Source: an uncultured bacterium
GTDB taxonomy: Bacteria > Babelota > Babeliae > Babelales > Vermiphilaceae
Length of the DNA: 64,000 bases
Direction of reading: 5' to 3'
Assembly (NCBI GenBank): GCA_963713925.1
Contig: OY970212.1
Location: 320,001-384,000 of the forward strand
The position numbers were made by a program, and so were the translations under genes. Of the stretch, positions 3,599-36,812 are shown one piece after another. How positions within the stretch are numbered: position 1 is the stretch's first letter; each line of letters starts with the position of its first letter. The notes beneath the pieces are model-generated. The model was given only the letters and a program-made list of their open reading frames with translations. It did not search any database and had not been told where the DNA came from.

Positions 3599-3679
3599 AA
3601 CATGCCTTTATATTAAAAAATTGAAATTATAAGTTTATAGCCAGTATAACAAAAATTCGATTTTTTAAAAGTTTGTCAG

Positions 3680-3722
3680 AAAAAAGAGATGAGCCTTTTG
3701 TATTGGCTCATCTCTTTTTTTT
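3680..3722. terminator. Bidirectional Rho-independent terminator
   Basis: aaaaaagagatgagcc-N9-ggctcatctctttttt. Confidence 0.8.
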
Positions 3723-21067: not shown

Positions 21068-21209
21068 AGCTTATACGAAAATTAAGCATTCTAACTAAAA
21101 AAGGGTTGGTTGTCATGCTGAACTTGTTTCAGCATCCAGGTTAAGTAGATCCTGAAATAAATTCAGGATGACATAGCAATAAGGAATTTCTGGGATTTTC
21201 GGATAAGCT
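21068..21209. repeat. Nested palindromic element: outer 15-bp inverted repeat around an inner double hairpin (21111-21173)
   Basis: agcttatacgaaaat / attttcggataagct; inner tgtcatgctgaacttgtttcagcatc...gatcctgaaataaattcaggatgaca. Confidence 0.75.
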
Positions 21210-33866: not shown

Positions 33867-33920
33867 AGCTCGCGCGGCCTAAAGGCCGTGGCTTTCTTAT
33901 TTAATAAAATAGTCTCAAAT

Positions 33921-34307
33921 CGTTCGTGGTGAGCGTAGTGCAACGAAGTCGAACCATACGAACAAGAAAATAGATATGCAAAATTTTTATGTATATATTC
34001 TTCAATGCAGTGATAACTCATATTACACTGGCCATACCGATAATATCGAGCTACGAATTCAAGAACATCAAAGCGGTCGGTATCAAGGTTATACCGCGAC
34101 ACGCCTGCCGGTACAACTAGTTTTAGTTGAAACAATGGCTTCTCGTGCGGATGCTTTGGAAGCAGAAATGCAAATTAAGAAATGGTCACGCAAGAAAAAA
34201 GAGATTCTTATTAAATATGGATGGCAGGGAATGAAAAGCTTTGCAAAACAATACAAGTAAGAAAGTTCGTATGGTTCGACTTCGTTGCACTACGCTCACC
34301 ACGAACG
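33921..34307. mobile_element. Putative GIY-YIG-encoding element bounded by perfect 43-bp inverted repeats
   Basis: 33921-33963 cgttcgtggtgagcgtagtgcaacgaagtcgaaccatacgaac is the exact reverse complement of 34265-34307. Confidence 0.75.
33976..34260 (+). CDS. Small GIY-YIG nuclease (UPF0213/YhbQ-like)
   Basis: FYVYIL.C.D.SYYTG.T....R..EH..G; ALEAEMQIKKWSRKKK. Confidence 0.92.
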   Translation: MQNFYVYILQCSDNSYYTGHTDNIELRIQEHQSGRYQGYTATRLPVQLVLVETMASRADALEAEMQIKKWSRKKKEILIKYGWQGMKSFAKQYK

Positions 34308-34340: not shown

Positions 34341-36515
34341 ATGAATGAATTACAATTGAGTGGTACTGTTGAGCGACATCTTTTTCAAAACTCTGAAAAC
34401 GGTTACGCAGTTTCTGTGATAAGTGTTTCTGATCGACAAACCATTGTTGTCAAAGGTCACATGGCGCATGTGCAACCAGGTGAACAAGTACTGGTCACTG
34501 GCGCATGGGTGCAGCATCCCAAATTTGGCAAGCAGTTTGAGGCTGCAACATGTGTCACGCAAGTTCCCACAAGCCTTGTGGGGCTCAAAAAATATTTGGG
34601 CTCAGGTCTCATTAAGGGAATTGGTCCATCATACGCACAACGATTAATTGATGCATTCGGTTCACAAGTGCTCGAAGTCATAGATAAGCATCCGGAAAAA
34701 TTGACGCTTGTTGAAGGAATTGGTCAAAAGCGAGCGCAAGAGATTACCACTGCTTGGCAATCGCAAAAAGATATCGCTTCCATTATGGTCTTTTTACAAG
34801 AGAAGGGCGTTTCCCCTGCGTATGCGGTTAAGATTTATAAAAAATATGGACAAGCTTCTATTGCGATGGTGCAAGAAAATCCGTATCGCTTGGCGGAGGA
34901 TATTTGGGGAATAGGTTTTAAGCTTGCAGATCAAATTGCGCAAGCGATTGGTATTGCTTCCGATTCATTAAAACGGGTGATGGCTGCTTATTTGCATCAA
35001 TTATCAGTAGAAGCCTCAAGCGGGCATTTATATTCGTTCATTGAGCCTCTCAAACAAAAGACGGCACAATTGCTCGAGTTTGATCTGCAAGAACAAGCGC
35101 AGAAGCTCAAGAATGCGTTACATCAATTGCATGATGAAGGTAAGATTAAACTGATCAGCAGTGGTGATGAACATTACATTGGGTTGGCGTTACATTATTT
35201 TACCGAAAAAAATGTTGCCGATCGTATCAAACTTCTTTTAAGCCAGTCTCCTACCGTCAGCTACGATACGAACGTGATATACAACAAACTGCGCGCTCCA
35301 GATGCGAACAAAAAAATTCATCTCAATGAAGATCAACAGCATGGCATTGTCACGGCATTATCGCATCAAATATCGATCATCACGGGCGGACCGGGGACCG
35401 GTAAAACGACATTAATTAAAGAGTTGCTTGATATTATTGATGAACACAGGGCTGTGTACCGGCTTGCTGCTCCCACCGGACGCGCAGCAAAACGAATCAC
35501 TGAGGGCACGCAGCGCAATGCGGCGACAATACATCGATTGCTCGAGTTTGATTTTTTAACGCATCGATTTTTGAAAAATGAACAAAATGCGCTCAAGGTT
35601 GATTTTCTTATCATCGATGAATCATCAATGCTTGACGTGTTTCTCATGCATAGTGTACTGAAGGCAATTCCGTTTGGTGCGCGTGTTGTTTTTATCGGTG
35701 ACATTGATCAGCTCCCGTCAGTCGGGGCCGGCAATGTGTTGCATGATATGATTGTCAGCGGCGTTGTGCCGACGGTGCGTCTCAAAACAATATTCCGACA
35801 AGCCCAAGACAGTATGATTGTAGTCAACGCTCACCGCGTAAATAGCGGTCAATTCCCGCTCGGCTATCAAGAAGGTGCGCGCAGAGATTTTATTTTCATC
35901 AAAGAAGAGAACCCCGAACAAGCGATGACACACATTCGGGAGCTTCTGCTCAAGCGGCTTGGCCTTCATGGCATGCGTGCCGAGGATGCAACGATCTTGG
36001 TGCCTATGAACAAAACAATTGTCGGCGCACAAACGATGAATGCACAGCTGCAGGAGTTACTCAATCATAATCAAGAACGTGTGGAACATCATGGCACGAC
36101 CTTTAAAATGGGTGATCGAGTCATGCAGATTCGCAACAATTACGATAAAATCGTGTTTAATGGCGATGTTGGCATCATAGAAGAAATAACGTCTGAAAAA
36201 AAGTTGCGCGTGAATTATTCCGATCGGATCGTTGAATACGAATTCAATGAGCTCGATGAGTTAACGCTCGCCTATGCAATGACGATTCATAAAAGCCAGG
36301 GATCGGAATATCCGGCGGTGATCATTCCGATTTTTATGCAACATTTTACTCTTTTGCAACGAAATTTGGTGTACACTGCAATTACGCGCGCTAAGCGTTT
36401 GTGTGTTCTGATCGGGCAAACGAAGGCAATTGCGATGGCCATTAACAATGACAAAGGAACGGTTCGATTAACATTGCTGAAACAATTTTTAACTTCGGAT
36501 CTTGCGTGTCGATGA
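34341..36515 (+). CDS. recD2: ATP-dependent RecD2-like DNA helicase
   Basis: HPKFGKQF, HhH IKGIG, TGGPGTGKTT, APTGRAA, DESSM, GDIDQL, TIHKSQGSE, YTAITRAK. Confidence 0.95.
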   Translation: MNELQLSGTVERHLFQNSENGYAVSVISVSDRQTIVVKGHMAHVQPGEQVLVTGAWVQHPKFGKQFEAATCVTQVPTSLVGLKKYLGSGLIKGIGPSYAQRLIDAFGSQVLEVIDKHPEKLTLVEGIGQKRAQEITTAWQSQKDIASIMVFLQEKGVSPAYAVKIYKKYGQASIAMVQENPYRLAEDIWGIGFKLADQIAQAIGIASDSLKRVMAAYLHQLSVEASSGHLYSFIEPLKQKTAQLLEFDLQEQAQKLKNALHQLHDEGKIKLISSGDEHYIGLALHYFTEKNVADRIKLLLSQSPTVSYDTNVIYNKLRAPDANKKIHLNEDQQHGIVTALSHQISIITGGPGTGKTTLIKELLDIIDEHRAVYRLAAPTGRAAKRITEGTQRNAATIHRLLEFDFLTHRFLKNEQNALKVDFLIIDESSMLDVFLMHSVLKAIPFGARVVFIGDIDQLPSVGAGNVLHDMIVSGVVPTVRLKTIFRQAQDSMIVVNAHRVNSGQFPLGYQEGARRDFIFIKEENPEQAMTHIRELLLKRLGLHGMRAEDATILVPMNKTIVGAQTMNAQLQELLNHNQERVEHHGTTFKMGDRVMQIRNNYDKIVFNGDVGIIEEITSEKKLRVNYSDRIVEYEFNELDELTLAYAMTIHKSQGSEYPAVIIPIFMQHFTLLQRNLVYTAITRAKRLCVLIGQTKAIAMAINNDKGTVRLTLLKQFLTSDLACR

Positions 36516-36554
36516 TGAAATCAGACCTATTGCGAAATTAAAAAAAATTGTTCT

Positions 36555-36747
36555 CCGTTCGTGGCGAGCAGAACGGGTTCCCGATCGTAGCGTAAGTGTA
36601 GATTGGGGTTAAAACGTAGTGCAGTCGAACCATACGAACAAAAAAATAAATGTGCATGTATATAGCGGGAAATGAAAAATTTTGTAAAAAAGATACAAAA
36701 AAAGTTCGTATGGTTCGACTCCGTTGCACTCCGCTCACCACGAACGG
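36555..36747. mobile_element. Internally deleted, non-autonomous copy of the GIY-YIG element
   Basis: Same arms (right arm 36704-36746, 2 mismatches) plus decayed 5' and 3' ends of the nuclease gene; left arm interrupted by a mini-hairpin repeat. Confidence 0.75.
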
Positions 36748-36812
36748 TTGGAAACTAGTTTATTAGGATTTTCAAAAATTCAACGGACTCTAAATATCGA
36801 GAATGTATAATT

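Follow-up and report, generated by a model that had tools for sequence, protein, structure and literature searches.

Described systems nearest to the locus

In the Ssn system, sequence-specific single-strand cutting beside a hairpin has been reported for four cd10448 proteins, and the layout has been likened to insertion sequence and REP systems (PMC11893778, Chenal et al. 2025). The main text of that paper puts forward the past or present mobility of hairpin-nuclease-hairpin units as a hypothesis only, and deleted derivatives, MITEs, IS5 ends and UPF0213 (cd10456) are not mentioned there. The locus analysed here lies in a 64,000-nucleotide stretch (hereafter the window, G000:C1:320001-384000) of a single-contig genome (G000; 1.32 Mb, 40.8% G+C, 95.75% complete), which to judge by named homologs and pattern matches is probably that of a Babeliales/Dependentiae bacterium, and comprises an intact element, E1, and a gene-less element, E2, on either side of recD2. 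It shares with Ssn and its NTS/SRM hairpin repeats (SsnA, cd10448; PMC11893778) a single-domain GIY-YIG gene of ~94 aa, oriented hairpin repeats on both sides of the gene and a genome-wide dispersal of the repeat. In contrast to Ssn, the E1 protein falls outside the SRM-flanked clade and has UPF0213 proteins as its nearest solved relatives, and the published degenerate SRM pattern has 0 matches at E1 and E2; another hairpin flanks the gene.

REPIN/RAYT systems, as described by Bertels and Rainey (2011; PMC3337134) and Di Nocera et al. (2013; PMC3733652), also consist of doublets in which two inverted copies of a short imperfect palindrome fold into one long hairpin; these doublets are mostly intergenic, occur in both orientations and have variable spacers. 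However, the enzyme linked to the present repeat is a GIY-YIG protein rather than a Y1 HUH transposase, and the spacer of E2 is a remnant of the enzyme's own gene. No RAYT (Y1) gene flanked by the repeat arm was found in the genome, where the only Y1 match is 30 codons long (genome 735855) and lies ~9 kb from the nearest arm cluster. The E2 system would work like the Ssn/REPIN type yet fails membership of both. With IS-derived MITEs (PMC3184786) and IS5 elements such as L081, E2 shares a non-coding, multi-copy character, a length of ~270 bp and a transposase-element terminal repeat at its end. It differs from them in that its interior is a hairpin-nuclease cassette rather than IS5 sequence, only one IS5 end is recognisable and its modules are mosaic. 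Of the features that define a MITE, E2 shows the shared terminal repeat, the lack of coding capacity and the dispersed copies, and matching repeats at both ends are missing, with no target duplication readable.

UPF0213/YhbQ/YazA proteins are the best structural-database matches of the E1 protein. However, YhbQ, YazA and a YazA-like protein are encoded in host-gene surroundings, their genes lack a flanking arm motif, and the arm-flanked proteins form a separate and much more similar group. We assume that cd10456 is the UPF0213 label. A literature search, mostly of papers available without subscription, found no paper on a UPF0213-like clade with these repeats or on deleted derivatives of it.

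The gene-less element E2 and its sibling copies

E1 (33921-34307) consists of a 43-nt hairpin unit as its left arm (33921-33963, forward strand), a 94-aa single-domain, UPF0213-like GIY-YIG nuclease gene (33976-34260, forward strand; PF01541, E 1.5e-17) and a right arm (34265-34307, reverse strand) that forms a perfect inverted repeat with the left one. PF01541 is the only domain of the protein, in which Y7, Y17, R27, H31 and E64 are present; its nearest solved structures are the UPF0213 proteins 1zg2 (E 6.7e-17) and 1ywl, and it is 36-47% identical to YhbQ, YazA and the YazA-like protein. On the gene-5' side of E1 lies a remnant of the right-end linker that also flanks E2 (33902-33920, forward strand), with the IS5 terminal repeat missing. 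A GC palindrome, which we take to resemble IS200/IS605 end hairpins, occupies 33871-33891, where the outer terminal repeat of E1 would be expected, and a similar one abuts the 1274.9-kb copy. A second intact element is present at ~141.5 kb, and its gene (genome 141650) encodes a protein with 81% amino acid identity to that of E1. The dN/dS between the two intact genes is 0.25, and both are under purifying selection.

In a 60-protein tree, a 21-member Ssn-like clade defined by a 100/99 branch took 13 of 13 SRM-flanked and none of the arm-flanked proteins, all 29 of which lay outside it, so that the arm and SRM labels never crossed this branch; 18 rows of the tree carry neither label, its bootstrap had not settled, and Ssn-like proteins stand in for SsnA. 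Judged by sequence, the E1 nuclease is UPF0213-like and lies outside the SRM-flanked (Ssn-like) clade. The genome also encodes an Ssn-like gene (G000:C1 104371, L067) with its own hairpin repeat, which has 38 matches, including copies at 21112 and 21172 of the window. Another small GIY-YIG gene of yet another clade (G000:C1 1102667-1102918, L068) was seen just after a tRNA-like sequence, together with yet another repeat. The locus offers a testable enzyme-substrate pair from a different GIY-YIG clade, and with two clades and their separate hairpins in one genome, a cross-specificity assay is easy to design. The nuclease could widen the set of single-strand-specific nucleases.

The arm-to-arm core of E2 (36556-36746) is made up of two inverted hairpin arms around a 64-nt spacer, and the unit as a whole extends past both arms, to ~36521 and 36792. 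The earlier note had confined it to 36555-36747, which leaves out the IS5 end. From left to right, E2 begins with a flank bearing a second terminal motif (36521-36555, forward strand), which is common to the ~1253.0-kb copy and several single-arm loci; the flank is identical to that of the copy at genome 1252.9 kb at 27 of 44 positions, and the exact pattern of the motif is absent from all 201 genomes scanned, this genome included. The left arm (36556-36639, forward strand) carries a loop variant common to the sibling copies and is split by a nested 41-nt hairpin of a second repeat family (36575-36615, forward strand) with a short AACG direct repeat on either side. This second family has 41 pattern matches in the genome versus 0-1 in shuffles, and no associated enzyme was identified for it. 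Its members were seen both free-standing and nested in arm loops, with window sites at 36575-36615, 31515 and 3014. The left arm is followed by the gene leader with the first four bases of the GIY-YIG gene (36640-36655, forward strand), in which the former start is now GTG, and by a remnant of gene nt 240-285 with the trailer (36656-36703, forward strand), as defined by alignments to E1 and the siblings. The right arm (36704-36746, reverse strand) is identical to the E1 right arm at 41 of 43 positions, and the last module (36747-36792, reverse strand) is an IS5-family end composed of a linker and a 19-nt terminal repeat (36774-36792) that also occurs on L081 and L076. E2 is predicted to fold into one long hairpin (-39.5 kcal/mol, z -6.1), whereas single arms fold no better than shuffles. 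A search of Rfam with a cut-off of E 1 gave no match, terminator-like sites were absent, and promoter-like matches were near chance level.

The earlier note had described E2 as an internally deleted copy of E1, with two differences in the right arm and a ~65-bp spacer that joins the start and the end of the gene after the loss of about 240 bp of coding sequence. The arm count is exact (2 of 43 positions differ from 34265-34307), the spacer measures 64 nt (36640-36703), and gene nt ~5-239, about 235 bp, are gone. Since plain MAFFT misplaced the left arm, E1 and E2 were compared by long-gap alignments. Both ends of the spacer align to the gene: its gapped global alignment to the E1 interior scored 57.3, whereas dinucleotide shuffles averaged 32.2 (z 5.4) and none of 1000 scored as high; the reverse orientation gave z 1.5. 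Against the second intact copy, the spacer gave z 4.8. One piece had been misassigned, as 'tgtatata' does not come from the gene start; in E2 it is the decayed beginning of the 3' piece at gene nt 240, and the siblings keep ATATGGATAG. The gene-end spacer and the shared junction bear out a non-autonomous, internally deleted derivative, but descent from E1 itself failed, with the 3' remnant matching E1 at 35/47 and the siblings at 41/47, 42/48 and 37/48 positions, so that two of the three siblings are closer to it than E1 is. E2 is a real gene-less miniature of a hairpin-flanked nuclease element. An assembly artefact is unlikely, because the genome is a single contig in which E2 has many differences from E1 and from each sibling. 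Over the E2 stretch, read run X1 yielded short, low-depth pieces only; the contigs of X1-X3 are sparse, and their differences and one joint derive from other repeat copies.

As to whether the unit had been copied, a genome-wide search found the E2 junction again at ~1113.4 kb, ~1253.0 kb and ~1274.8 kb, which makes four independent loci with E2. A fifth junction copy at ~1111.4 kb was left out of this count, as it belongs to a local tandem duplication. A profile of the four spacers gave E<0.01 for the five junction copies, for both intact genes and for nothing else. Divergence at the junction is greatest in the ~1274.8-kb copy, which is therefore assigned to the family also by the left-arm loop and right flank that it shares. 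Each deleted copy has substitutions of its own. Other deletion types occur at ~1204.6, ~316.0 and ~905.2 kb (z 12.0, 4.5 and 3.9 against the second intact copy), and a 5' fragment of the GIY-YIG gene lies at ~1126.4 kb. Several deletion types together with one recurring junction indicate that deletion was repeated and that one of its products was copied. The recurrence of one internal deletion at four loci provides direct evidence from the genome that a hairpin-nuclease-hairpin unit was copied. The IS5 end is a caution that an ordinary transposase can do the copying, so that the existence of several derivatives is in itself no proof that the nuclease is a transposase.

The copies are mosaic. 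The right flank of E2 is nearest to two siblings (43/47 and 42/47) and its left flank to the third, whose right flank matches at 34/50, and in each comparison the likeness on the right ends immediately after the terminal TA. Moreover, the core is flipped relative to the linker, which is found on the gene-5' side in the two intact copies but on the gene-3' side in the deleted ones. The incongruent modules and the flipped core point to recombination through the arms. The upstream gene and the arm-leader junction had no match in metagenome scans, and neither these scans nor the X1-X3 contigs yielded a nucleotide-level empty site or a close strain. A second doublet family, with a conserved ~45-50-nt spacer and mostly beside IS5 ends, was observed at G000:C1 634.8, 777.2, 880.9, 900.2, 1163.9, 1197.1, 1271.7 and 1293.2 kb; its spacer is not clearly gene-derived (1/8 significant).

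IS5 ends and the spread of the arm-bounded units

The arm is a dispersed repeat, with 92 units (one counted twice) in 54 clusters of the genome and none in 3 shuffles. Fifty of the 54 clusters lie outside called ORFs, as crudely called, and 18 contain an inward pair. An IS5-like terminal was found within 140 nt of 26/54 arm clusters versus 11/2000 random windows; this loose pattern allowed 3 mismatches, a few matches among the 26 are doubtful, and the background windows are mostly coding. In 4/4 deleted copies, the IS5 terminal repeat lies 45-46 nt outside the right arm, and identity ends after the terminal TA. IS5-family elements prefer TA as their target. We assigned the terminal motif to the IS5 family because it bounds transposases in other genomes, namely a 249-aa transposase with DDE_Tnp_1 and DUF4096 (L081) and a frameshifted transposase (L076); exact matches to it occur in 18 of 151 genomes of the order. 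Past the terminal repeat, similarity to IS5 right ends continues in the right flank of the 1253-kb copy (z 4.5). The E2 linker in the same comparison gave z 1.2 (p 0.12), 1/8 linkers was significant against IS5 right ends, and left-type linkers gave z 1.4-1.8 against IS5 left ends.

On the other side, an IS5 left terminal repeat was recognisable in 0/4 deleted copies, two of which have a truncated left linker and two, including E2, a different terminal. As there is no recognisable left IS5 repeat, a target duplication is unreadable at E2. Some other cassettes in the genome carry IS5 terminals at both ends, and the intact paralog at ~141.5-142.06 kb is flanked by an IS5 terminal repeat on either side, of which one has decayed. 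Searches of the genome with DDE_Tnp_4, DDE_Tnp_1, DUF4096 and DDE_Tnp_1_2 gave no match for a transposase, and the L081 transposase had no tblastn match below E 0.5. The IS5 terminal repeat was also seen beside or around arm or SRM hairpins at L080, L084, L085, L086, L089, L091, L095 and L096, and the pairing of IS5 ends with hairpins thus recurs in several other genomes. Three identical 313-aa ORFs (G000:C1 678.4, 1121.1 and 1276.2 kb), presumably IS110-type transposases by their motifs, each lie in a cassette with an SRM-type hairpin and its own short terminal repeat. This ORF was considered as the mover of the arm cassettes and rejected, as it lies in SRM cassettes and not in arm cassettes.

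The E2 core at four loci, each with an IS5 terminal repeat, was likely copied as IS5-ended cargo by a transposase that has since been lost, a reading to which we give a probability of about 0.55 and which is favoured because every copy ends at the IS5 terminal repeat. In this sequence of events, an arm-GIY-YIG-arm unit would first have come to sit inside IS5 ends, as the intact paralog at ~141.5-142.06 kb suggests. One copy then lost ~235 bp of its gene, as the shared junction records, and the deleted version was copied into new intergenic gaps. The boundary of the copies suggests that the agent of this step was most likely an IS5 transposase acting in trans. Recombination between arms would subsequently have flipped the core against its flanks and swapped the left flanks, giving the observed mosaic, and nested hairpins would have entered the arm loops. 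By analogy with Ssn, we infer that the E1 nuclease cuts in an Ssn-like manner: it would most likely bind the arm as a single-stranded hairpin and cut beside it, and would thereby seed and maintain the arm family.

The main alternative, though less likely, is that the GIY-YIG nuclease itself copies arm-bounded cores as RAYTs do for REPINs, by nicking beside single-stranded arms; host repair would then insert the core at a new site or let it replace a resident arm pair, and the IS5 ends would be older landing pads or passengers. The main support comes from other genomes, as G049, G112, G122 and G153 have abundant inward doublets that are sharp-edged, with conserved asymmetric arm pairs, and only 2 weak IS5-end matches in 32 loci. 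With no convincing IS5 ends at these doublets, the arms have spread in those genomes without IS5. In G153, 3/3 doublet spacers tend towards the inner-end sequence of the gene-bearing element (z 2.0, 1.9 and 3.6 after trimming), a signal that fell once the arm bases were trimmed. In contrast, the spacers in G112 show gene similarity in 0/6 cases and those in G049 are AT-rich with no clear gene remnant, which speaks against this alternative. About half of the arm clusters in the present genome lack an IS5 end, and the further deletion types at ~1204.6, ~316.0 and ~905.2 kb and the purifying selection on the two intact genes also speak for it. However, in the four deleted copies the shared sequence reaches ~46 nt past the arm and ends precisely at the IS5 terminus, which would not be expected if movement were bounded by the arms alone, and no report of strand transfer by Ssn was found in PMC11893778, where mobility is a hypothesis.

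The distribution of the nuclease bears on both readings, and its link to the arms forms part of the preferred one. Within the order, close homologs have a patchy distribution and often several copies; one is present in 7 of the 9 other genomes with at least 5 arm matches. Around 29 close homolog loci, an arm-type motif was found upstream in 17, downstream in 21 and on both sides in 13, versus 1/58 recD2 flanks, although the arm pattern was drawn up after viewing homolog flanks and hence favours these counts. The exact arm pattern occurs in 16 other genomes, several of them without a close homolog, and in the species collection a nuclease gene lies within 600 nt of just 2/80 arm-pattern loci. 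About 16 inward doublets were observed in G049 (L263-L282), their arm pairs asymmetric and their spacers AT-rich, and four GIY-YIG genes there are flanked by at least 3 different arm variants. Tentatively, the arm-flanked UPF0213-like proteins might constitute a second widespread family of hairpin-specific single-strand nucleases outside Ssn that mobilises its own arm-bounded DNA; in that case, a GIY-YIG 'transposase' of 94 residues would have E2 and its siblings as its REPIN-like non-autonomous elements, joined here with IS5 ends as a two-enzyme chimera.

Passive spread by ectopic recombination or gene conversion between existing arm-bearing cassettes, with no dedicated enzyme, is unlikely. 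The mosaic modules and flipped cores agree with it, as does the one copy that arose by local tandem duplication, but it requires cassettes placed earlier by something else and leaves the match between protein clade and hairpin type across genomes unexplained.

The position of recD2 between E1 and E2

The gene order is E1, recD2 (34341-36515, forward strand; TIGR01448, 829 bits), E2 and an amidase-like gene. The earlier note had suggested that E1 and E2 bracket recD2 and could act as a composite unit; they would then be the ends of a unit that moved, or can move, recD2. The two outer ends do share a 62-nt inverted match of 90% (33902-33963 and 36704-36765), which arises because E1 and E2 both carry an arm and a linker. 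This proposal is now very improbable and largely refuted. Of 31 genomes, 30 contain a single intact recD2 match and G006 a split one, and among 29 relatives the neighbours of recD2 are mostly kept (upstream gene 25/29, amidase 19/29), an ancestral gene order that argues against the composite reading. As a single-copy, syntenic gene that is neither displaced nor duplicated, recD2 was rejected as the cargo of a composite transposon. Moreover, E1 and E2 are not near-identical complete ends, as the E2 remnant matches E1 at only 35/47 positions, E2 is nearer to distant siblings than to E1 in 2 of 3 comparisons, and the left outer end has no terminal repeat. The pairing is also expected by chance, with 1 pair of arm clusters one gene apart observed and 2.35 expected at random. 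recD2 is a host gene, not cargo, and for recD2 the finding is ordinary; under the preferred reading of IS5-ended cargo, E1 and E2 would be separate insertions on either side of it.

The least credible explanation, a chance likeness of an AT-rich spacer or an assembly artefact at a locus that low-depth reads did not confirm, is at odds with z 5.4 against dinucleotide shuffles and with diverged copies that share the junction at four loci, each with its own substitutions.

No complete copy of the E1/E2 arm was found at the recD2 loci of the 29 relatives. A related arm pair in a different arrangement occupies the gap of E1 in L007, and an Ssn-like gene follows the amidase in L014; both are read as independent insertions. 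In the closest relative (L002), the recD2 stop runs directly into a start codon, and the two overlap at 3660-3680 ahead of the amidase match. In the window, the recD2 stop likewise overlaps an ATG (36512-36523) a few bases ahead of the left terminal of E2, and the E2 cassette may have landed just behind the former amidase start. Elsewhere on the contig, two paralogous ORFs of ~520 aa (G000:C1 4592-6172 and 74454-76001) were seen to have a near-identical N-terminal part and different C-termini, and are polymorphic-toxin-like.
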